Shown here: positions 7,387 through 49,266 of the stretch, piece after piece
Layout of the letters: every line of letters starts with the position of its first letter
How positions within the stretch are numbered: position 1 is the first letter of the stretch
DNA from: Escherichia coli
GTDB lineage: Bacteria > Pseudomonadota > Gammaproteobacteria > Enterobacterales > Enterobacteriaceae
Reading direction: 5' to 3' (one strand)
Assembly: GCF_030013595.1 (NCBI RefSeq)
Contig: NZ_CP122768.1
Length of the DNA stretch: 64,000 nt
Program-made: the position numbers and the translations under genes
Notes under the pieces: generated by a model
What the model saw: only the letters and a program-made list of their open reading frames with translations
Told to the model about the DNA's origin: nothing
Database searches by the model: none

Positions 7387-8670
7387 ATGGCTGATACAAA
7401 AGCAAAACTCACCCTCAACGGGGACACAGCTGTTGAACTGGATGTGCTGAAAGGCACGCTGGGTCAAGATGTTATTGATATCCGTACTCTCGGTTCAAAA
7501 GGTGTGTTCACCTTTGACCCAGGCTTCACTTCAACCGCATCCTGCGAATCTAAAATTACTTTTATTGATGGTGATGAAGGTATTTTGCTGCACCGCGGTT
7601 TCCCGATCGATCAGCTGGCGACCGATTCTAACTACCTGGAAGTTTGTTACATCCTGCTGAATGGTGAAAAACCGACTCAGGAACAGTATGACGAATTTAA
7701 AACTACGGTGACCCGTCATACCATGATCCACGAGCAGATTACCCGTCTGTTCCATGCTTTCCGTCGCGACTCGCATCCAATGGCAGTCATGTGTGGTATT
7801 ACCGGCGCGCTGGCGGCGTTCTATCACGACTCGCTGGATGTTAACAATCCTCGTCATCGTGAAATTGCCGCGTTCCGCCTGCTGTCGAAAATGCCGACCA
7901 TGGCCGCGATGTGTTACAAGTATTCCATTGGTCAGCCATTTGTTTACCCGCGCAACGATCTCTCCTATGCCGGTAACTTCCTGAATATGATGTTCTCCAC
8001 GCCGTGCGAACCGTATGAAGTTAATCCGATTCTGGAACGTGCTATGGACCGTATTCTGATCCTGCACGCTGACCATGAACAGAACGCCTCTACCTCCACC
8101 GTGCGTACCGCTGGCTCTTCGGGGGCGAACCCGTTTGCCTGTATCGCAGCAGGTATTGCTTCACTGTGGGGACCTGCGCACGGTGGTGCTAACGAAGCGG
8201 CGCTGAAAATGCTGGAAGAAATCAGCTCCGTTAAACACATTCCGGAATTTGTTCGTCGTGCGAAAGATAAAAATGATTCTTTCCGCCTGATGGGCTTCGG
8301 GCACCGCGTGTACAAAAATTACGACCCGCGCGCCACCGTAATGCGTGAAACCTGCCATGAAGTGCTGAAAGAGCTGGGGACCAAAGATGACCTGCTGGAA
8401 GTGGCTATGGAGCTGGAAAACATCGCGCTGAACGATCCGTACTTTATCGAGAAGAAATTGTACCCGAACGTCGACTTCTACTCTGGTATCATCCTGAAAG
8501 CGATGGGTATTCCGTCTTCCATGTTCACCGTCATTTTCGCAATGGCACGTACCGTTGGCTGGATCGCCCACTGGAGCGAAATGCACAGTGACGGTATGAA
8601 GATTGCCCGTCCGCGTCAACTGTATACAGGATATGAAAAACGTGACTTTAAAAGCGATATCAAGCGTTAA
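7387..8670 (+). CDS. gltA: citrate synthase
   Basis: ORF track 427 aa [20 protein letters not shown]...; divergent from sdhC across a 708-bp AT-rich control region. Confidence 0.97.
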
Positions 8671-8698
8671 TGGTTGATTGCTAAGCCGTTTACTTTCC

Positions 8699-8730
8699 GA
8701 ACCCGCCTTTAATAGAGCGGGTTCTTTTTT
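8699..8730 (+). terminator. rho-independent terminator downstream of gltA
   Basis: GAACCCGC-loop-GCGGGTTC stem followed by TTTTTT. Confidence 0.65.
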
Positions 8731-9059
8731 ATATGGCTGAACATAAAAAATTGTAAAAATTAAACCAGATGCAAATACCCATTAATAAGGTGAGAAAATG
8801 TGACAAGTCACATACTGAGCAGAATGATAAGTTTATTTTTATACTTCCCTGCCGGTAGCATTATTAACTCAATGAAAATTATGCATATCCATCCCATTCC
8901 ATCCTTCATCTCATTAAACAATAAATTTATGCACTCAATTATTCCATTCTTTATATAACAAGCTTTTTAATATTGTTAAATAAAACCAAATACATTCAAC
9001 TGTCAGTTAATATATTCTTGCCTCGCAACACTCTATCTCATTATTTAAAGGACTCAGCT

Positions 9060-9626
9060 ATGTTTAAAGGACAAAAAACATTGGCCGCACTGGCCGTATC
9101 TCTGCTGTTCACTGCACCTGTTTATGCGGCTGATGAAGGATCCGGTGAAATTCACTTTAAAGGTGAAGTTATTGAAGCACCGTGTGAAATACATCAGGAT
9201 GATATTGATAAAGAGGTTGAACTCGGTCAGGTGACCACCAGCCACATTAATCAGTCGCATCACAGCGATGCCGTTGCTGTCGACCTGCGCTTAGTCAACT
9301 GCGATCTGGAAAACTCCAACAACGGTTCCGGCGGCAAGATTTCTAAAGTTGCAGTCACCTTTGACAGCTCAGCGAAAACCACCGGCGCAGATCCGATTCT
9401 CAACAACACCAGCACGGGTGAAGCGACCGGTGTCGGCGTGCGTTTAATGAATAAAGATCAAAGCAATATCGTTTTAGGCACCGCTACTCCAGATATCGAC
9501 CTGGCACCAACCTCCAGCGAACAAACGTTAAATTTCTTTGCGTGGATGGAACAAATTGATCAGGCTACGCCCGTAACACCAGGCGCAGTTACGGCGAATG
9601 CGACCTACGTACTGGATTATAAATAA
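9060..9626 (+). CDS. ybgD: fimbrial-like subunit protein
   Basis: Within ORF 8973..9626; start set at MFKGQKTLAALAVSLLFTAPVYA (signal peptide) with AAAGGA RBS; follows a long AT-rich leader. Confidence 0.85.
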   Translation: MFKGQKTLAALAVSLLFTAPVYAADEGSGEIHFKGEVIEAPCEIHQDDIDKEVELGQVTTSHINQSHHSDAVAVDLRLVNCDLENSNNGSGGKISKVAVTFDSSAKTTGADPILNNTSTGEATGVGVRLMNKDQSNIVLGTATPDIDLAPTSSEQTLNFFAWMEQIDQATPVTPGAVTANATYVLDYK

Positions 9627-9636
9627 GTATCACTTT

Positions 9637-9660
9637 GGCGGCGTCATCGCCGCCTTTCTT
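9637..9660 (+). terminator. intra-operon hairpin (attenuator-like) between ybgD and ybgQ
   Basis: GGCGGCG-TCAT-CGCCGCC stem-loop followed by TTTCTT; fimbrial operons commonly carry such a structure after the major subunit gene. Confidence 0.45.
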
Positions 9661-9676
9661 CAAATATTTATCAGGT

Positions 9677-12136
9677 ATGGACACCGTGAATATTTATCGA
9701 CTCTCTTTTATATCCTGCCTGGTCATGGCGATACCTTCCGCATTGGCGGTCGAATTCAACCTGAATGTCCTCGATAAATCGATGCGAGATCGCATTGATA
9801 TTTCATTATTAAAGGAAAAAGGGGGCATTGCTCCCGGTGAATATTTTGTTAGCGTTGCGGTGAATAACAACCAAATCAGTAATGGGCAAAAAATCAACTG
9901 GCAAAAAAATGGTGACAAAACCATTCCATGCATCAATGATTCACTGGTCGATAAATTTGGTTTAAAACCAGATATCCGTCAGTCCTTGCCACAGATAGGT
10001 CGGTGTATTGATTTCAGTTCCCGACCTGAAATGCTCTTCAATTTCGATCAAGCCAATCAGCAACTGAATATTAGTATTCCGCAAGCCTGGCTGGCGTGGC
10101 ACTCAGATAACTGGACTCCCCCCTCAACATGGAAAGAAGGTGTCGCCGGCGTCCTGATGGACTACAACCTGTTTGCCAGCAGCTACCGCCCACAGGACGG
10201 CAGCAGCAGCACTAATCTGAATGCCTACGGAACAGCCGGAATTAACGCGGGAGCATGGCGTTTACGCAGTGATTACCAATTGAATCAGACCGATAGCGAT
10301 GATAACCATGAACAGTCAGGCGAAATATCACGCACCTATCTTTTTCGTCCATTACCGCAATTAGGTTCAAAATTAACCCTTGGTGAAACGGATTTCAGTT
10401 CCAATATTTTCGACGGCTTTTCTTATACCGGCGCGGCACTGGCAAGTGACGATCGGATGTTACCGTGGGAGCTACGCGGCTACGCCCCACAAATCAGCGG
10501 CATTGCACAAACCAACGCCACCGTCACCGTGAGTCACTCAGGGCGAGTTATTTACCAGAAAAAAGTCCCACCAGGTCCGTTTATCATTGATGACCTTAAT
10601 CAGTCCGTCCAGGGTACGTTGGATGTCAAAGTGACGGAAGAAGATGGTCGGGTGAACAATTTCCAGGTTTCGGCAGCATCGACGCCTTTCCTTACGCGCC
10701 AGGGGCAGGTTCGCTATAAACTTGCTGCCGGTCAGCCGCGAACATCTATGTCTCATCAAACTGAAAATGAAACCTTTTTTAGCAATGAAGTTTCCTGGGG
10801 GATGCTGTCAAATACCTCACTGTACGGCGGCCTGCTGATTTCGGGTGACGACTACCATTCTGCCGCAATGGGTATCGGGCAAAATATGCTCTGGCTTGGT
10901 GCGCTGTCTTTTGATGTCACCTGGGCCAGTAGCCATTTTGATACTCAGCAGGACGAGCGGGGCTTAAGCTACCGTTTTAATTACAGCAAACAAGTGGATG
11001 CCACCGACAGCACGATTTCGCTCGCCGCTTATCGTTTCTCCGATCGTCATTTTCACAGCTACGCCAACTATCTGGATCACAAATACAACGACAGCGATGC
11101 GCAGGACGAAAAACAGACGATCAGCTTATCCGTGGGCCAACCGATTACCCCACTGAACCTCAATCTGTACGCCAACCTGCTGCATCAAACCTGGTGGAAT
11201 GCAGACGCCTCCACGACCGCCAACATCACGGCGGGTTTTAATGTTGATATTGGTAACTGGAGAGATATCTCGATCTCGACGTCATTCAATACAACCCATT
11301 ACGAAGATAAAGATCGCGACAATCAGATTTACCTGTCGATTTCGCTCCCCTTCGGTAACGGGGGGCGGGTCGGTTATGACATGCAAAACAGTAGTCACAG
11401 CACCACGCACCGCATGTCGTGGAATGATACGTTAGATGAACGTAATAGCTGGGGCATGTCTACCGGACTGCAATCCGACCGTCCGGATAATGGAGCCCAG
11501 CTGAGCGGTAACTATCAGCACCTGAGTTCAGCGGGTGAGTGGGATATTTCTGGTACCTATGCCGCCAATGATTACAGTTCCGTCAGCAGCAGCTGGAGCG
11601 GTTCTTTCACGGCAACTCAATATGGTGCGGCGTTCCATCGCCGCAGCTCCACCAATGAACCACGCCTGATGGTCAGCACCGATGGCGTGGCAGATATTCC
11701 GGTTCAGGGCAATCTCGACTACACCAACCATTTTGGCATTGCGGTGGTGCCGTTGATTTCCAGTTACCAGCCTTCCACCGTGGCGGTGAACATGAATGAT
11801 TTACCCGACGGCGTAACAGTGGCAGATAACGTTATCAAAGAAACGTGGATTGAAGGCGCGATAGGTTACAAATCACTGGCTTCCCGTTCCGGTAAAGACG
11901 TTAACGTCATCATTCGCAACGCCAGCGGTCAGTTCCCTCCCCTCGGAGCGGATATCCGCCAGGAGGATAGCGGCATTAGCGTGGGAATGGTTGGCGAGGA
12001 AGGACACGCCTGGTTAAGCGGAGTCGCTGAAAATCAACAATTTACCGTGATCTGGGGTGATAGCCAGCGTTGCTCGATCCATCTTCCTGAACATATGGAA
12101 GACACCGCAAATCGCCTGATTTTACCTTGTCATTAA
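9677..12136 (+). CDS. ybgQ: outer-membrane fimbrial usher protein
   Basis: ORF track 9635..12136 starts at TTG inside the hairpin; ATG at 9677 (MDTVNIYRLSFISCLVMAIPSALA, signal-peptide-like) preferred; length typical of ushers; exact start uncertain. Confidence 0.85.
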   Translation: MDTVNIYRLSFISCLVMAIPSALAVEFNLNVLDKSMRDRIDISLLKEKGGIAPGEYFVSVAVNNNQISNGQKINWQKNGDKTIPCINDSLVDKFGLKPDIRQSLPQIGRCIDFSSRPEMLFNFDQANQQLNISIPQAWLAWHSDNWTPPSTWKEGVAGVLMDYNLFASSYRPQDGSSSTNLNAYGTAGINAGAWRLRSDYQLNQTDSDDNHEQSGEISRTYLFRPLPQLGSKLTLGETDFSSNIFDGFSYTGAALASDDRMLPWELRGYAPQISGIAQTNATVTVSHSGRVIYQKKVPPGPFIIDDLNQSVQGTLDVKVTEEDGRVNNFQVSAASTPFLTRQGQVRYKLAAGQPRTSMSHQTENETFFSNEVSWGMLSNTSLYGGLLISGDDYHSAAMGIGQNMLWLGALSFDVTWASSHFDTQQDERGLSYRFNYSKQVDATDSTISLAAYRFSDRHFHSYANYLDHKYNDSDAQDEKQTISLSVGQPITPLNLNLYANLLHQTWWNADASTTANITAGFNVDIGNWRDISISTSFNTTHYEDKDRDNQIYLSISLPFGNGGRVGYDMQNSSHSTTHRMSWNDTLDERNSWGMSTGLQSDRPDNGAQLSGNYQHLSSAGEWDISGTYAANDYSSVSSSWSGSFTATQYGAAFHRRSSTNEPRLMVSTDGVADIPVQGNLDYTNHFGIAVVPLISSYQPSTVAVNMNDLPDGVTVADNVIKETWIEGAIGYKSLASRSGKDVNVIIRNASGQFPPLGADIRQEDSGISVGMVGEEGHAWLSGVAENQQFTVIWGDSQRCSIHLPEHMEDTANRLILPCH

Positions 12137-12151
12137 TTAAGGAAATGAAAA

Positions 12152-12883
12152 ATGACATTTATGAAAGGACTTCCCCTTTTGTTGTTGATTGCCAGTCTGT
12201 GCAGCTACGCTGCGCTACAACCCGATCGCACTCGCATTGTGTTTAACGCTAATGATAAAGCCACCAGCCTACGAGTGGATAATCGTAGCGATAAACTCCC
12301 CTACCTCGCTTATTCCTGGCTCGAAAATGAAAAAGGGGAGAAAAGCGACGATCTTCTGGTCGCCCTGCCACCGATACAACGTCTGGAACCGAAAGCAACA
12401 ACGCAGGTGCGGATAGTCAAGCAAGCCTCGACCGCGAAATTACCGGGCGATCGCGAAACGCTATTTTTCTACAATATGCGTGAAATTCCTCCCTCCCCAG
12501 AAAAAAACAGCGGCCATGCCGTTCTGCAGGTCGCCATCCAGAGTCGTATCAAGGTGTTCTGGAGACCGTCCGCGTTACGCAAGAAAGCAGGAGAAAAAGT
12601 CGAGCTACAGTTACAAGTCAGCCAGCAGGGCAATCAACTTAACTTAAAAAACCCGACCGGCTATTACCTGACAATCGCCTACCTGGGACGAAATGAGCAA
12701 GCTGTTCTCCCGGGCTTCAAAACCGTGATGGTTGCGCCTTTTAGTACAGTAATTACAAACACCGGAAGTTATAGCGGCAGTCAGTTTTATCTCGGTTATA
12801 TGGATGATTACGGCGCGTTACGCATGACGACGCTCAATTGCAACGGACATTGCCGTTTACAAGCAGTGGAGGCGAAGAAATGA
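12152..12883 (+). CDS. ybgP: periplasmic fimbrial chaperone (PapD-like)
   Basis: ORF track 243 aa [20 protein letters not shown]...; follows the usher gene. Confidence 0.85.
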
Positions 12884-13941
12884 GTACTGGCAAAGGATTG
12901 TTGCTCGTCATCTGTCTGTTATTTCTGCCATTGAAGTCTGCGCTAGCGCTGAACTGCTATTTTGGTACTTCCGGCGGAACGGTAGAAAAATCGGAAGCGA
13001 TTCAACCCTTTGCTGTGCCAGGTAATGCCAAACCCGGCGATAAGATCTGGGAATCTGACGATATTAAAATTCCCGTCTATTGTGACAACAATACCAACGG
13101 CAACTTTGAAAGCGAACATGTCTACGCATGGGTAAACCCCTACCCGGGGGTACAGGATCGTTATTATCAACTCGGCGTGACATACAATGGTGTCGATTAC
13201 GATGCCAGTCTGGGGAAAAGCCGCATCGACACCAACCAGTGTATCGACAGTAAGAATATTAACATTTATACCCCTGAGCAGATTATCGCGATGGGCTGGC
13301 AGAACAAAATATGCTCGGGTGACCCCGCTAATATTCACATGTCGCGAACCTTTCTCGCTCGTATGCGGTTATACGTTAAGATTCGCGAAATGCCGCCGCA
13401 TGATTATCAAAGTACGCTTAGCGACTACATCGTCGTGCAATTTGATGGTGCCGGTAGCGTTAACGAAGACCCTACCGCCCAAAACCTGAAATATCATATT
13501 ACTGGTCTGGAAAACATTCGCGTGCTGGATTGCAGCGTCAATTTTTCCATTTCACCGGAAACACAGGTGATTGATTTTGGTAAATTTAATTTGCTGGATA
13601 TTCGTCGCCACACAATGTCGAAAACATTCAGTATTAAGACGACAAAATCACAAAATGACCAGTGCACCGACGGATTTAAGGTCAGCTCTTCGTTTTATAC
13701 CGAAGAAACATTGATTGAAGAGGATAAAGCACTGCTGATTAGTAATGGACTGAAGCTACGTTTGCTGGATGAAAATTCTTCACCCTATACTTTCAACAAA
13801 TACAGCGAATATGCTGATTTCACTAGCGATATGCTGATCTACGAAAAAACCTATACGGCTGAACTTTCGTCCATTCCCGGCACCCCCATCGAAGCGGGTC
13901 CCTTCGATACAGTGGTGCTTTTTAAGATTAACTATAACTAA
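12880..13941 (+). CDS. ybgO: fimbrial adhesin-like protein
   Basis: Within ORF 12838..13941; start at [23 protein letters not shown] (ATG 12880, ATGA overlap with ybgP stop). Confidence 0.8.
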
Positions 13942-14093
13942 TTTATCATGATGCCCTTTGCAGTCAGTAAAGGGCCTCTCTTTCAGAAAATTGCTGATTT
14001 TCCCCTTTTCCTTGATTGCTGTTATTTTTTCCTGGCCCGGCTTTCTTTATGCTGTATCGATACACCAAAGAAAAAATAATGAGGGAACGAAGG

Positions 14094-15140
14094 ATGCCAG
14101 TTTTGCAGTGGGGAATGTTATGTGTGCTCTCACTTCTCCTTTCTATTGGTTTCCTCGCGGTTCATCTCCCGGCGGCGCTATTACTTGGGCCGATGATCGC
14201 CGGGATCATCTTTAGTATGCGCGGAATTACTCTGCAACTTCCCCGCTCTGCTTTTCTCGCCGCCCAGGCCATTCTTGGCTGCATGATTGCGCAAAACCTC
14301 ACTGGTTCGATTCTCACCACGCTGGCCGTCAACTGGCCGATCGTGCTTACAATTTTACTGGTGACGCTGCTTTCCAGCGCCATTGTTGGGTGGCTACTGG
14401 TGCGCTATAGCTCATTACCTGGAAATACTGGTGCCTGGGGTTCTTCTCCTGGCGGCGCGGCGGCAATGGTCGCTATGGCGCAAGATTACGGCGCAGATAT
14501 TCGCCTGGTGGCGTTTATGCAATATCTGCGAGTGCTGTTCGTCGCGGGGGCAGCTGTTCTGGTCACCCGCATGATGCTGGGTGATAACGCTGAAGCGGTT
14601 AACCAGCAAATCGTCTGGTTCCCTTCAGTGAGCATTAATCTCCTGCTTACGATTTTGCTCGCAGTCGTTGCCGGTACAGTGGGATGCTTGCTACGTCTTC
14701 CTTCCGGCACGATGCTCATCCCGATGCTGGCGGGCGCAGTGCTCCAGTCTGGTCAGCTCATCACCATCGAACTACCGGAATGGCTGCTTGCGATGGCGTA
14801 TATGGCAATTGGCTGGCGGATTGGCCTTGGTTTCGATAAACAAATCTTACTGCGGGCACTACGCCCGCTACCGCAAATCCTGCTGTCGATTTTTGCTCTG
14901 CTGGCTATTTGTGCAGGTATGGCGTGGGGGCTGACCCGGTTTATGCATATTGATTTTATGACTGCCTACCTCGCCACCAGTCCCGGCGGGCTTGATACCG
15001 TGGCGGTCATCGCCGCAGGGAGCAATGCCGATATGGCGCTTATTATGGCGATGCAAACCCTGCGCCTGTTCAGTATTTTGCTGACGGGGCCAGCCATTGC
15101 GCGGTTTATTTCAACCTATGCGCCGAAGCGGTCGGCCTAG
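14094..15140 (+). CDS. abrB: AbrB-family inner-membrane protein (putative regulator of aidB)
   Basis: Within ORF 14016..15140; start at [12 protein letters not shown] (ATG 14094), highly hydrophobic 348 aa; 4-nt overlap with the convergent nei stop. Confidence 0.85.
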
Positions 15141-23686: not shown

Positions 23687-26600
23687 TCAGTACCTCCCGT
23701 TAGGAACAGAAAATCCAGGCAAACGCCTTAGATTTTCCCACGATTCAGGGAAGTGAGTTAAGATCACTGGTGTTTTCCCTATCTGACTTGTTGCAGTAAA
23801 CAAACCTGTTTCAGGATCATAATAGCCTACTCTAGGTTTATTCGTATACCTATCTCTATAAGTAAATTTCCTGCCATTTTGTATCGTGGTTCTTGCACTA
23901 ATATCATATTCTTTTACTGAATTTGCACCGACTTGTGAGCCATGTTTTTCAAAGTGATCTCTTAGGCCCGGCCCATCAACATTTTGTCGTGCTTTATTCC
24001 ATTTTGCATTTTTAGCCGTACCACAAAATAACCCAAGCGGATCGATCCAGCTTAACGGATTTGGCACATAAGCATAGAGGTTCAGCCCACCGTTTAATCC
24101 TATCGGGTCCGTTACCATGAACCGCCCGACATCCGGATCATAGTACCTGTGCAGATTGTAATGCAGCCCCGTTTCCCTGTCGAGGTACTGTCCCTGGTAG
24201 CGCAGGTTCTGCTCCACCCCGCCGTGGTCCTTCTCCTGTATCGTGTTACCCCAGACCTGATACCCCGTCTCCCACACGATTTTCCCGTCGCTGTCCGTCA
24301 TCTCTTCCGGCGCGCCGTTCACATCCGTGTGAAAATACAGTATCCGGTTCGGGCCCTCTTTGCCCGCCTTATCCACCCGCGCCAGCGGTTCATAACTCCC
24401 CGGGTCCCTGTAGATGTACAGGCTGTCTGTTCCCTCCGGCCTGCTCTCCTGCGCCAGCCGCATTCCGTCCCATAAAAATTTTGTCCGGTTGTACGGTTTA
24501 CCGTCAGGACTGATGTGCTGTTTTTCCGTCCGCCTCCCCAGCGCATCGTACACATACCGGTACGTCCCCCGCGCTGTCGTCACTTCCACCATCCGGTGTT
24601 CCGCATCATAACGGTAACTCTGCGTGCCGCTCCGCCCCTCCTTTTCCACCGCACGGCCAAATTCGTCGTAACGGTAGTGCACACCACGGTAAGACATCAG
24701 CCGGTTGAACGGCACCACGCTGTTTTCTGCCGTGGCCCTTTCCCCCGCGCGCCGCGCCAGCAGGTTTCCCGCCGCGTCGTACTGCCAGCTCGCCAGATAC
24801 CCCTCATCCTCCGAGCGGCACGCCGTGATGCGCCCCGTGGGGTCGTAGAAGTAATCCGTTTCCCCCCGCCGGCTGTGCCGCGTCTTCAGCAGTTCATCCT
24901 CGCCACTGTAGCTGTACTGCCGGTCCGTGAACGTCTCCGGTACCCCCCCGCGCATCCCGCTGTATGTCTCCCTGCGCTTCAGCCGCCCGCCGGGGTCGTA
25001 AAGCTGCCGCGTGCTCAGTCGCCCCTGGCTTCTGAGCACTTCACGGTGCAGGGCGTCACGTGTGAACTCGCTGATGACCTCCCGGTCCAGATTTATCTGC
25101 TGGAGATGGCCGCTGCCGTAGTACAGATGACGCTGCGTTCTGCCGTCCGGAAAGGTGGTGGCTGTCCGGTTGCTGAGTTCATCGTACTGATGGGTCAGGA
25201 CGCCCTGCGCCGTCTCCTCAGTCAGCATCCGCCCCAGTCTGTCGTAACTGAAGCGGATAATCTCCGGTGCGTCTGTTTCCCCGGCATCCGACCGTCGGCG
25301 GCGGATTTCCAGTAGCTGGTCTGCCGCATCATGGACGTATTCCGTACGGCTATCGGCTGTCTCCTTTGCCGTAAGCCGGCCCGCCGCATCACGTGCCAGC
25401 CGATGGCGGATTTCACCGCCCCGGTCCCCGGTGAACACCACTTCCGTGACCGCGTTCAGCGCGTTGTAGCGGTACGTCTGGCGGCAGCCGTCCGGATTTA
25501 TCTGCTCCGCCAGACGGTCCAGCACATCATGGCGGAACCGGTAGCTTTCTCCGTTCTCGTTTGTCAGCGTGACCAGACGCCCGTAAGCATCGTACCCGAA
25601 TGCCGTCCTGCGCCCCGTCGCGTCCGTCCGGCTGCGCACCCGGCCCTGCCCGTCCCGCTGCCAGCGCGTTATCCTCCCCATCGGGCTGGTGTACTTCACC
25701 AGCCTGCCCGCCGCGTCCGACTGGTAATTCACCGTGCGGCCGTCCGCCAGTATCACCTCCGTCAGGTGGCCGCTGTCGTCATACCCGTAGCGCGTGCTGT
25801 GGCTCTGCGCGTCTGTCATCCGTATCAGCCGCGTGCGTTCGTCGTAGAACCAGGCCGTCTGCGAGCCGGAACAGTCCGTGTGCCGCATGAGCTGCCCGTC
25901 TTCGTTCCACTGAAGGTATTTATTCCCCCCGCGCGCATCGGTTATCTGCACCACCTGGCCGTGGCGGTCATACTGATACCGGGTGTTCTGCTGCAGCGGG
26001 TCGGTCACCGCAAGAAGATTGCCGCGTTCATCGTACTCACAGCACCAGCTGTTCCCCGCCGCGTCCACCTCCGTTTCCGGCTGGTGCCACACCGGGTGCC
26101 ACTGTGTCTGTGCCACCCGCCCCAGCGGGTCGTGCGTCTCCGTGATATGCCCCTGCCGGTCATACACATAGCGCCATTTGCCGCCCTGCGCATCGGTCAT
26201 TCCCAGTAACAGCCGTTCTTCGTCGCTCCAGCGGAACGTCGTCACCTGCCCGGCTTCGTCCTGGTACGCCGTCACCTGGTTCTGCGCGTCCCACTGATGA
26301 TAACGCGTGCGCCCCAGCCCGTCCGTCACGCACAGCCTGCGTGACGCCAGGCTCCACGCCAGCCGGTACTGTTCACCGCTGTCCGTGTGGTGCCCCGTCA
26401 CCCGCCACGCTGCGTCATCCGGGCCTTCATACCAGCCCCACTGGTAATAATACCCTTCGCCGCCCGGCTGGCGGTGCAGGGTCATGCAGTGGTTTTCGTC
26501 GTAAGCAAACTCGCGCAGCAGGTGTCCCGTGCTGTCGTACACGCCGTTCAGGTCGCCGGCCTCGTCATAGCGGTAACGACGCAGCAGTAAAGGAGCCGTC

Positions 26601-48209: not shown

Positions 48210-48227
48210 GGCTTTGTTGAATAAATC
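48210..48227. repeat. IS903 left terminal inverted repeat
   Basis: GGCTTTGTTGAATAAATC; inverse complement found at 49249..49266. Confidence 0.9.
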
Positions 48228-48286
48228 GAACTTTTGCTGAGTTGAAGGATCAGATCACGCATCCTCCCGACAACACAGACCATTCC

Positions 48287-49210
48287 GTGGCAAAGCAAAA
48301 GTTCAGAATCACCAACTGGTCCACCTACAACAAAGCTCTCATCAACCGTGGCTCCCTCACTTTCTGGCTGGATGATGAAGCGATTCAGGCCTGGTATGAG
48401 TCGGCAACGCCTTCATCACGAGGAAGGCCCCAGCGCTATTCTGATCTCGCCATCACCACCGTTCTGGTGATTAAACGCGTATTCCGGCTGACCCTGCGGG
48501 CTGCGCAGGGCTTTATTGATTCCATTTTTTCTCTGATGAACGTTCCGCTACGCTGCCCGGATTACAGCTGTGTCAGCAGGCGGGCAAAGTCGGTTAATGT
48601 CAGTTTCAAAACGCCCACCCGGGGTGAAATCGCACACCTGGTAATTGATTCCACCGGGCTGAAGGTCTTCGGTGAAGGCGAGTGGAAAGTCAAAAAGCAT
48701 GGCCAGGAACGCCGCCGTATCTGGCGTAAGCTGCATCTCGCCGTTGACAGTAAAACACATGAAATCATCTGCGCTGACCTGTCGCTGAACAACGTTACGG
48801 ACTCAGAGGCCTTCCCCGGGTTAATCCGGCAAACCCACCGGAAAATCAGGTCAGCCGCCGCCGATGGCGCTTACGATACCCGGCTATGTCACGATGAACT
48901 GCGGCGTAAGAAAATCAGCGCGCTTATCCCTCCCCGAAAAGGTGCGGGTTACTGGCCCGGTGAATATGCAGACCGTAACCGTGCAGTGGCTAATCAGCGA
49001 ATGACCGGGAGTAATGCGCGGTGGAAATGGACAACAGATTACAACCGTCGCTCGATAGCGGAAACGGCGATGTACCGGGTAAAACAGCTGTTCGGGGGTT
49101 CACTGACGCTGCGTGACTACGATGGTCAGGTTGCGGAGGCTATGGCCCTGGTACGAGCGCTGAACAAAATGACGAAAGCAGGTATGCCTGAAAGCGTGCG
49201 TATTGCCTGA
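48287..49210 (+). CDS. IS903-family transposase
   Basis: ORF track 48242..49210; GTG at 48287 gives 307 aa beginning [39 protein letters not shown], matching the IS903 transposase as I recall it. Confidence 0.9.
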
Positions 49211-49248
49211 AAACACAACCCGCTACGGGGGAGACTTACCCAAAATCT

Positions 49249-49266
49249 GATTTATTCAACAAAGCC
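49249..49266. repeat. IS903 right terminal inverted repeat
   Basis: GATTTATTCAACAAAGCC, perfect inverse complement of the left repeat. Confidence 0.9.

Follow-up and report, generated by a model that had tools for sequence, protein, structure and literature searches.

Chaperone-usher fimbriae are built by a pathway in which subunits are exported by Sec, captured by a chaperone through donor-strand complementation and polymerised by an usher at the outer membrane. In the pap operon, a terminator structure at the 3' end of papA has been described, together with differential decay of the pap and CFA/I transcripts (PMC5927463), and selective processing and stabilisation have been reported for both of these fimbrial operons (PMC5927463, PMC4423207). 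The closest described system to the locus considered here is ybgDQPO of Escherichia coli K-12 (b0719-b0716), a "core-associated" chaperone-usher type (Wurpel 2013, PMC3559732); the Ybg type is defined by usher phylogeny and locus position. In laboratory-grown K-12 the operon is cryptic, and many strains lack an intact copy (PMC3559732). Forced expression of the K-12 genes is reported to increase binding to bladder cells (Korea 2010, as cited in PMC6033998), and a pulse-chase assembly assay showed YbgQ assembling in the outer membrane (PMC11014939). Higher ybg expression has been reported in HUS-associated STEC (PMC6033998), and BolA overexpression induces ybgD (PMC4337573). The spacer between ybgD and gltA in K-12 is reported to be an H-NS-bound "promoter island" (PMC3661553), and an RpoD SELEX promoter has been placed there along with H-NS (PMC3946193).

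The present analysis concerns an E. coli window, i.e., the whole 64-kb stretch of DNA that was analysed, in which a ybg locus occurs. Very probably, the region is an intact Ybg chaperone-usher operon that is kept by selection, with a leader through which it would be silenced and a hairpin that would set its stoichiometry. The operon, the H-NS-bound leader of K-12 and the post-pilin hairpins of pap and fim are already in the literature, and in this sense the operon is an ordinary one. The description "normally cryptic" given to it in the first-pass annotation rests on the K-12 literature, not on the present strain.

Gene content and intactness of the locus

Four co-directional genes, ybgD-ybgQ-ybgP-ybgO, occupy the + strand at 8731-13941 and are flanked by gltA and abrB, the order gltA / ybg / abrB-nei being the same as in K-12. 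The coding features, the ribosome-binding site of the first gene and the hairpin that follows the last are these:

9048-9052, + strand: Shine-Dalgarno site AAGGA of ybgD, 7 nt before its ATG
9060-9626, + strand: ybgD, major pilin of 188 aa with the signal peptide MFKGQKTLAALAVSLLFTAPVYA (read from the sequence), labelled fimbrial protein in RefSeq
9677-12136, + strand: ybgQ, outer-membrane usher of 819 aa counted from an ATG; the annotated start in K-12 is a GTG 9 nt downstream
12152-12883, + strand: ybgP, periplasmic PapD-like chaperone of 243 aa
12880-13941, + strand: ybgO, probable two-domain tip adhesin of 353 aa, overlapping the ybgP stop by 4 nt (ATGA)
13953-13985, + strand: terminator-like hairpin GCCCTTT-loop-AAAGGGC followed by CTCTCTTTCA, 12 nt after the ybgO stop (terminator scan)

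Each of the four frames is full length with one terminal stop only, and the allele lengths (188 / 819 / 242-243 / 353 aa) are those of K-12 and O157, with no frameshifts. A complete four-gene operon at 8731-13941, preceded by about 330 bp of AT-rich sequence, had been claimed from a first reading of the DNA, and annotation, Pfam and alignment bear out its coordinates, gene identities, order and intactness; no frameshift or premature stop is present in alignments to K-12, O157 and E69, and the leader measures 329 bp (8731-9059). The same four genes are annotated by RefSeq in K-12 and in a 99.95% identical genome, E. coli HCP5S3_I2. SNPs, L609V in YbgQ among them, and an extra IS element set the window apart from the latter. 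More widely, the D-Q-P-O gene order is preserved in 20 of 20 related loci, and gene order, hairpin, Shine-Dalgarno site and AT-rich leader are preserved together across at least 10 genera. Longer or additional reading frames were rejected as products of a first-start rule: a 52-aa GTG ORF at 8800-8958 lies in leader sequence that is unconserved, and the annotated starts that lie within the TTG-extended ORFs of ybgD (217 aa) and ybgQ (833 aa) have Shine-Dalgarno sites.

The products have the domains expected of such an operon. YbgD matches Pfam Fimbrial (PF00419) over residues 31-188 with 105.5 bits (E 4e-30), and its best PDB sequence matches are FimA and PapA. It is also the product of the most diverged gene of the operon, with 74% nucleotide and 79% amino acid identity to K-12, an alignment free of indels and a dN/dS of about 0.1. 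YbgQ scores above the Pfam cut-offs for PapC_N (119 bits), Usher (623 bits) and PapC_C (50 bits), and in pairwise identity it groups with YbgQ of K-12 (96% at the amino acid level versus 27-28% to FimD and HtrE); the dN/dS of its gene is 0.06-0.08. The Ybg usher would fall in the pi clade of Nuccio and Baumler. YbgP is a two-domain chaperone (PapD_N, 118 bits; PapD_C, 51 bits) with 87% amino acid identity to its K-12 counterpart and 39% to YqiH, the closest K-12 paralogue.

Residues 24-217 of YbgO are 97% identical to PDB chains 9RX0 and 9RWW, solved as a stand-alone N-terminal domain, for which a literature search found no paper. Residues 218-353 match Pfam Fimbrial with 24.3 bits (E 4e-5), just below the cut-off of 25.6. 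Overall, the adhesin shares 97.5% of its residues with K-12 YbgO and 33% with YqiI, its dN/dS is 0.03-0.06, and no indels occur. By the general pathway, pilin and adhesin would be exported by Sec and both captured by YbgP, with YbgQ then building a fibre of YbgD that would have YbgO, a probable two-domain adhesin, at its tip. The ATGA overlap of ybgP and ybgO suggests translational coupling, and at the end of the unit the stem of the terminator-like hairpin is preserved in K-12, O157 and E69, two of which have a G.U or U.G change in it.

The AT-rich leader

Three features define the region upstream of ybgD:

8700-8731, + strand: intrinsic terminator of gltA, AACCCGC-loop-GCGGGTT followed by CTTTTTTAT, the upstream border of the ybg unit (read from the sequence)
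8731-9059, + strand: AT-rich leader and regulatory region of ybgD, presumed site of H-NS silencing
8738-8765, + strand: candidate sigma-70 promoter TGAACA-16-TTAAAC, weak

In the spacer alignment, the stem and T-run of the gltA terminator, which a simple terminator scan missed on account of the 10-nt loop, are all that is conserved at the 5' end. At the other end, in an alignment of seven alleles, the only invariant block consists of the AAGGA and the ATG of ybgD. Between them, identity among E. coli alleles is only 40-67%, and the identity to the K-12 leader is about 58-67%. What has been retained is composition: the leader has 29.5% GC where the window averages 52.1%, no more than 0.5% of 329-bp segments are equally AT-rich, and a low GC content (26-35%) is found upstream of 17 of 19 homologous operons. 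By analogy with the K-12 spacer, H-NS probably coats this leader and keeps it silent in laboratory culture.

Transcription would start somewhere within these 329 bp, past the gltA terminator. The candidate promoter at 8738-8765 is the positional counterpart, via alignment, of the K-12 SELEX site TAAACA-16-TAAAAT (PMC3946193), and a consensus promoter scan names another site, GTGACA-17-AATGAT, at 8800-8828. That scan returned six sites versus 9.3 in shuffled sequence, i.e., fewer than in the shuffles, and it places no promoter confidently. Two kinds of phase switch were considered and rejected. A Pap-type Dam/Lrp switch finds no footing here, as no GATC occurs between 8566 and 9138 and neither a papI/papB-like gene nor any other regulator ORF lies between gltA and ybgD. 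As for a fimS-type invertible switch, the sole perfect inverted repeat (8901-8910 / 9132-9141, 10 bp) has one arm inside ybgD, and the other, 8901-8910, which is the only arm compared across alleles, has no counterpart in the K-12 leader. By our own estimate, about 0.6 such 10-bp pairs are expected by chance in 1.1 kb, and no recombinase gene is found near the operon.

The post-pilin stem-loop and its possible roles

The spacer between the pilin and usher genes contains a stable stem-loop:

9637-9654, + strand: stem-loop GGCGGCG-TCAT-CGCCGCC, 10 nt after the ybgD stop codon
9655-9661, + strand: its tail, TTTCTTC

The GC-rich hairpin first reported at 9637..9660 is thus real, the range having taken in stem plus tail. 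With a 7-bp all-G/C stem, a 4-nt loop and a dG of -14.2 kcal/mol, it is the top match of the terminator scan, and only three all-GC 7-bp hairpins of this kind occur on the + strand of the window. Among 5000 shuffles of the 50-nt ybgD-ybgQ spacer, 0.5% fold equally well, and the 91-nt context of the hairpin has a z of -2.6. A second, AU-rich stem (9662-9695), which a single-sequence fold places over the ribosome-binding site and start of ybgQ, was rejected as a regulatory structure because RNAalifold on eight alleles found no compensatory change and the pairs are broken in distant sequences; its conservation is a matter of coding and ribosome-binding-site constraint.

Absence of the hairpin from homologous operons was looked for, and a hairpin was found between pilin and usher genes in all those examined: in 22 of 22 distinct versions (dG -11.9 to -20.6 kcal/mol) and in 40 of 40 metagenome contigs that had been collected by a pattern anchored only on the usher start. 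Loops are 3-6 nt long and stems 6-11 bp. Among E. coli alleles, a six-pair stem core is invariant and the loops and flanks are scrambled, the K-12 hairpin having an A.C mismatch where the window has its seventh G-C pair. Covariation points the same way: both sides have changed in four of eight pairs, and 89.8% of cells are paired, a level that none of 500 shuffles attained and that slid controls fell far short of. The hairpin segments used for this had been cut by hand from 11 related sequences, and the shuffle counts should not be read as probabilities. The compensatory changes include C-G to U-A and the series G-C to U-A to C-G. Stems of unrelated sequence stand in the same position in Enterobacter, Pantoea, Salmonella, C. 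werkmanii and Chimaeribacter. The hairpin is best regarded as a required part of the ybg operon family, present in every version examined while its stem sequence turns over, and for this reason it deserves a feature line in annotation. An Rfam search of 8400-14300 with E up to 1 found nothing. The further claim that such a layout is typical of fimbrial operons agrees with K-12, where a stable stem-loop follows the major-subunit gene in four other chaperone-usher operons (ygiL-yqiG, yadN-yadV, yfcV-yfcU and fimA-fimI).

That claim had cast the hairpin as an attenuator, and the evidence fits stabilisation of the 3' end just as well as termination. The U-tail in the window, TTTCTTCA, has 5 T in 8; among the 22 versions, tails start with TTT in 13 and reach at least 5 T in only seven, and the hairpins of E. 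albertii, Superficieibacter, Pseudocitrobacter, one Citrobacter and S. diarizonae are essentially tail-less. With tails so weak or absent in relatives, canonical intrinsic termination cannot be the universally conserved role. Because the tails are short, and lacking in some relatives, we infer a leaky terminator and/or a 3' stabiliser by which pilin would come to outnumber the other three products. The G+C stem-loop and its short U-tail would lower the ybgQPO message relative to that of ybgD: some transcripts would end at it, or the 3' end of the ybgD segment would be protected from 3'-5' exonucleases, or both. Each usher, chaperone and adhesin would then be matched by many pilins. The weak ribosome-binding site of ybgQ and the ybgP/ybgO overlap would fit such a pilin-excess design.

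A narrower version, possible but on balance doubtful, is that the hairpin does not terminate at all and is only a barrier to 3'-5' exonucleases, with RNase E cutting in the AU-rich stretch downstream (AAAUAUUUAU, motif RN|WUU) so that a stable ybgD mRNA is left and the ybgQPO fragment is less stable. The stem is universal and a good U-tract is not, the spacer of the closest paralogue, ygiL-yqiG, has a strong stem without a U-tail, and the processing documented in pap and CFA/I (PMC5927463, PMC4423207) offers a precedent. Nevertheless, TTT directly follows the stem in all alleles of the E. coli clade despite the scrambling of neighbouring spacer bases, clear U-rich tails recur in several distant genera (e.g., Chimaeribacter and Klebsiella sp., 7/8), and the RNase E motif is degenerate enough to be expected by chance in AU-rich sequence. 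The barrier and terminator readings are not exclusive, and they lead to the same outcome.

It is conceivable, though improbable, that processing releases the stem-loop as a small regulatory RNA of 3'UTR origin, which would act in trans, for example in cross-talk between adhesins, motility or biofilm formation. The idea draws on FimR2, which sits directly after fimA in the K-12 annotation, in the same position as the ybg hairpin, and is produced by RNase E from the fim transcript (PMC9723502), and the ybg stem is more strongly conserved than its surroundings. An excised RNA of this type could, by that analogy, couple the silent Ybg adhesin to other surface programmes, an equally improbable extension. 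The details argue otherwise, as the loop and flanks, the would-be carriers of a seed, are the least conserved part, no Rfam match exists down to E = 1, and the loop and flanks (9627-9665) have no CsrA-type GGA motif. Moreover, the unrelated stem sequences of distant homologues fit a structural role in cis rather than a sequence-specific one in trans.

There is little to be said for the proposal that the operon is a decaying relic, silent and functionless in nature, with the hairpin a leftover. Its crypticity in K-12 laboratory conditions and its breakage in many strains (PMC3559732) do lend the proposal some colour. A match is missing from about 12% of complete E. coli genomes, others have undergone a deletion that leaves only 396 nt of ybgO, and variants with an IS1 insertion or stop-loss exist. 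Against this, dN/dS is 0.03-0.12 for all four genes, with a dS of 0.26-2.2 between E. coli alleles, i.e., with synonymous sites near saturation, and the operon is therefore maintained by selection. The lack of indels in ybgD and ybgO, the cross-genus preservation of order, hairpin, Shine-Dalgarno site and AT-rich leader, and the reports on HUS-associated STEC (PMC6033998) and BolA (PMC4337573) likewise count against decay. Strong purifying selection despite the "cryptic" label means that the operon is used somewhere in nature. Finally, that GGCGGC-N6-GCCGCC is a DNA palindrome bound by a dimeric regulator is scarcely credible, for although the palindrome is perfect and compensatory changes preserve DNA symmetry too, loop and stem lengths vary, distant stems are unrelated in sequence, the element lies within the transcription unit 10 nt past a stop codon, and the G.U pairs of E. 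albertii and Superficieibacter work only on the sense strand, being A.C mismatches on the other.

Allelic divergence and comparison with known systems

The ybg locus forms a sharply bounded island of ancient allelic divergence. The window-type leader and ybgD are the common type, with at least 90% identity in 3372 of 5426 complete E. coli genomes, and the K-12 and O157 types fall in a 60-80% identity band comprising 1338. Saturated synonymous sites within one species suggest long-term balancing or frequency-dependent selection on a supposedly cryptic fimbria. This reading by ancient alleles is more probable, and less mechanistic, than that of an excised small RNA, and a literature search on deep allelic divergence of ybg found no paper. 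K-12 is an untypical reference for ybgD and its leader, and reference-based variant calling or GWAS at ybg (e.g., PMC12547504) will read an allele replacement as dense SNPs.

Several known systems share parts of this arrangement. The H-NS "promoter islands" of K-12 (PMC3661553) likewise include an AT-rich spacer (~400 bp) upstream of a silent adhesin operon; the window leader has composition in common with it, not sequence, and H-NS binding is reported for the K-12 spacer only. The fimA-fimI spacer with FimR2 (PMC9723502) is alike in having a structured element right after the major-pilin stop codon, but it has no sequence similarity to the ybg hairpin, which also lacks an Rfam match and a CsrA-type GGA; expression of fim is controlled by the invertible fimS switch, and ybg has no switch of that type. 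In the pap operon, the major-pilin message ends in a stable structure that gives the pilin transcript an excess over those of the downstream assembly genes (Baga 1988, as summarised in PMC5927463). There, however, papI/papB regulators and a Dam/Lrp GATC switch are present and, upstream of papA, an RNase E site with its 5' stem, whereas ybg has neither a regulator gene nor a GATC across its leader.

Closer still is the paralogous ygiL-yqiGHI operon of K-12 (Yqi / ExPEC adhesin I-type), with the same layout of pilin, usher, chaperone and adhesin of roughly 350 aa and a G+C stem-loop right after the pilin gene, as in ybg. Its identities to the Ybg proteins, 37% (YgiL), 39% (YqiH) and 33% (YqiI), are the highest of any paralogue; the locus lies near zupT, yqiG is split by IS2 in K-12, and the hairpin has no U-tail. 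The nearest relative is K-12 ybgDQPO itself, which differs in the allele class of its leader and ybgD and in a partly different ybgP (84% nucleotide identity), and which has the same locus, genes, order and lengths and shares the hairpin core and the operon-end hairpin with the window.

The ybg operon and its products

The operon lies between gltA and abrB, with the following layout.

Features of the ybg locus (window positions)
7387-8670: gltA (citrate synthase), upstream flank of ybg
8700-8731: gltA terminator, with the leader starting directly after it
9060-9626, plus strand: ybgD, pilin (Pfam Fimbrial)
9637-9654, plus strand: hairpin GGCGGCG-TCAT-CGCCGCC, dG -14.2 kcal/mol, then TTTCTTC
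9677-12136, plus strand: ybgQ, usher (Pfam PapC_N, Usher, PapC_C)
12152-12883, plus strand: ybgP, chaperone (Pfam PapD_N, PapD_C)
12880-13941, plus strand: ybgO, C-terminal pilin domain with a Pfam score just below the cut-off
14094-15140: abrB, downstream flank of ybg

Alignment with the K-12, O157 and E69 reference alleles found all four ybg frames to be full length and free of frameshifts, and the four co-directional, intact genes of the first-pass annotation, all on the plus strand, are thereby confirmed. The same four genes occupy the same locus in K-12 MG1655 and O157:H7, and their RefSeq coordinates and products are identical in HCP5S3_I2, a 99.95% identical genome from pig faeces. The K-12 annotation starts ybgQ at a GTG (9686), 9 nt 3' of the ATG (9677) chosen by PGAP in other genomes. 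This GTG may be the real start, because the AGG preceding the ATG sits very near it; mature YbgQ is unchanged whichever is used.

Wurpel's two criteria, the position of the locus and the similarity of the usher (96% amino acid identity with K-12 YbgQ), both assign the operon to the Ybg fimbrial type, and there is nothing new in kind here. Among its paralogues, the four-gene yqi operon (ygiL-yqiGHI) of K-12 is the nearest. Four-gene homologous operons of Kluyvera, Enterobacter and Pantoea (loci L142, L144, L145 and L149) adjoin a Zip-family (zupT-like) gene, and in K-12 zupT lies ~2 kb upstream of ygiL; this shared neighbour suggests that ybg-like and yqi-like operons swapped loci during evolution.

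Residues 24-217 of YbgO (window 12949-13530) are 97% identical to PDB chains 9RX0 and 9RWW, a construct that begins at the predicted mature N-terminus and ends at the start of the pilin domain. These limits, together with the C-terminal pilin domain, argue that YbgO is a two-domain adhesin whose putative receptor-binding domain has been structurally solved. The related entries 9RWU, 9RWV and 9RWE accompany the two in the 2026 PDB copy, and no paper describing any of them was found in the searched literature.

The AT-rich leader

The leader (8731-9059) comprises 329 bp at 29.5% GC, against 52.1% for the window, which places it in the lowest 0.5% of stretches of that length and agrees with the roughly 330 bp of very AT-rich sequence first noted. 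Low GC 5' of the pilin gene (26-35% over 300 bp) recurs in 17 of 19 homologous operons, against 47-63% GC in their coding parts. Between E. coli alleles the leader is nearly unalignable (40-67% identity), and only the gltA terminator and an AAGGA-N7-ATG block are conserved.

In K-12, the ybgD/gltA spacer is on a list of H-NS-bound promoter islands (PMC3661553), and is also recorded as carrying an RpoD SELEX promoter, TAAACA-16-TAAAAT, along with H-NS (PMC3946193). The candidate counterpart in the window is TGAACA-16-TTAAAC (8738-8765). By analogy with K-12, we infer that the leader would be silenced by H-NS in the window strain. The leader holds neither GATC sites nor detectable conserved inverted repeats, and the ybg locus lacks a regulator gene, which excludes phase switching of the Pap or fim type.

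Perfect 10-nt direct repeats lie on either side of the ybgD ATG (9044-9053 and 9063-9072, TTTAAAGGAC) and of the ybgQ ATG (9663-9672 and 9689-9698, AATATTTATC). The ybgD pair is retained in other E. coli alleles, SCPM-O-B-8794 having AAAAGGAC on both sides, and appears to co-vary between them.

Allelic divergence, selection and loss

The one point worth passing on from this locus is its population-genetic pattern. Window positions 8640-14600 form a sharply bounded island of deep divergence within E. coli, starting no more than ~30 bp from the gltA stop and fading within abrB: gltA is 97-100% identical to its K-12 and O157 counterparts, the leader only 40-65% and ybgD 65-75%, with identity climbing again inside abrB. 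Compared with K-12 the picture is a mosaic (ybgQ 93.5%, but ybgD 74%), which implies that allele classes have recombined, and the island itself probably represents ancient alleles. Among 5426 complete E. coli genomes, the leader and ybgD class of the window predominates, with at least 90% identity in 3372; the classes of K-12 and O157 are both in the minority. No description of this island was found in the searched literature; a STEC GWAS has reported very high variant density in ybgP (PMC12547504).

Among the window, K-12, O157 and E69 alleles, operon dS is 0.26-2.2, with saturation for ybgD and all O157 comparisons. Flanking dS among the window, K-12 and O157 is 0.05-0.11 for gltA and 0.11-0.25 for abrB (~0.3 against the divergent E69). 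In all four ybg genes dN/dS is only 0.03-0.12, and ybgD and ybgO are free of indels. The notion of ybg as cryptic junk is rejected, given such dN/dS despite dS of up to 2.2. Forced expression leads to adherence (Korea 2010, as cited in PMC6033998), expression is higher in HUS-associated STEC (PMC6033998), and BolA overexpression induces ybgD (PMC4337573).

The operon is nonetheless dispensable. Wurpel et al. (2013) found it core-associated, yet often not intact (PMC3559732), and 663 of the 5426 genomes have no ybg match. A common deletion variant, found in ExPEC- and APEC-type genomes, leaves only a 396-nt ybgO 3' pseudogene between gltA and abrB, as in E. coli MS1657 (locus L018, 3126-3521), where the equivalent of window ~8800-13545 is missing: most of the leader, ybgD, ybgQ, ybgP and two thirds of ybgO.

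Elsewhere in the window, an IS903-like (IS5 family) element of 1057 bp (48210-49266; terminal inverted repeats GGCTTTGTTGAATAAATCG, 9-bp target duplication TCGCCGTAA, DDE transposase ORF 48242-49210) cuts the chitoporin gene chiP in two and is missing in the otherwise 99.95% identical HCP5S3_I2. By the annotation of that genome, 22883-29200 holds a SymE-family toxin gene, a 4.6-kb RHS core protein gene with a low-GC C-terminal tip and a small ORF downstream, and a DcrB-related pseudogene. The region also contains two of the lowest-GC stretches in the window and, starting near 24024, a 3-nt indel when compared with HCP5S3_I2.

The post-pilin hairpin

The GC-rich hairpin that had been noted between the subunit and usher genes is borne out by folding. 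It follows the ybgD stop by 10 nt, with the ybgQ ATG 22 nt further 3', and is the top terminator-like site of the region; the plus strand of the window has just three all-GC 7-bp hairpins, this one included. Only 0.5% of shuffled spacers fold equally well.

Homologous operons were gathered in three independent ways. A peptide-pattern scan of species-representative genomes returned 10 loci (Escherichia, Superficieibacter, Citrobacter, Pseudocitrobacter), all with pilin-usher-chaperone-adhesin order and a pilin-usher stem-loop. A metagenome scan, anchored on the usher start alone and thus not presupposing the hairpin, found it in 40 of 40 contigs with a YbgQ-like N-terminus (14 distinct junctions). 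Protein searches with contig look-ups yielded ten ushers of 45-81% identity (E. fergusonii, [Enterobacter] lignolyticus, Kluyvera, Klebsiella, Enterobacter, Pantoea, Salmonella diarizonae, C. werkmanii, Chimaeribacter), each with a stable stem-loop at this position; the more distant loci have wholly unrelated stem sequences. With the stem-loop present in all homologous loci examined and the frames intact, the first-pass observation and its interpretation came through both checks proposed against them.

E. coli alleles share an invariant GGCGGC/GCCGCC core amid scrambled loops and spacer flanks. In a hand-cut 11-sequence alignment, both partners have changed in 4 of 8 pairs and 89.8% of cells are paired, a result that is indicative only; none of 500 shuffles of this alignment reached these values, and slid controls collapse. 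The presence of G.U pairs and the differing lengths of the loop fit an RNA structure on the sense strand better than a DNA palindrome. Another stem, AU-rich and overlapping the ybgQ start, lacked covariation support and was dropped.

Several variants were encountered. In Escherichia whittamii (L010, 1743-1847), an insertion of ~66 nt separates the ybgD stop from the hairpin, which remains beside ybgQ rather than ybgD; the tblastn match to YbgQ is broken, and ybgQ is possibly frameshifted. In two metagenome contigs, an IS1 terminal repeat abuts the hairpin (L052) or the ybgD stop has changed from TAA to TCA, so that translation would pass through it (L027). The protein database also holds a 1021-aa pilin-usher fusion (P0002).

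Short tails are the rule: TTT opens the tail in 13 of 22 versions, only 7 contain five or more T in 8, and five are practically without a U-tract. Since a strong terminator would defeat an operon whose usher, chaperone and adhesin all lie downstream, the hairpin is read as a leaky terminator, a barrier to 3' exonucleases, or both; either role would leave ybgD message in excess over that of ybgQPO. The same logic of excess pilin message is known from the pap and CFA/I operons (PMC5927463, PMC4423207). The layout is also, as first proposed, typical of fimbrial operons: in K-12, a stable stem-loop directly follows the major-subunit gene in ygiL-yqiG, yadN-yadV, yfcV-yfcU and fimA-fimI, just as in ybg.
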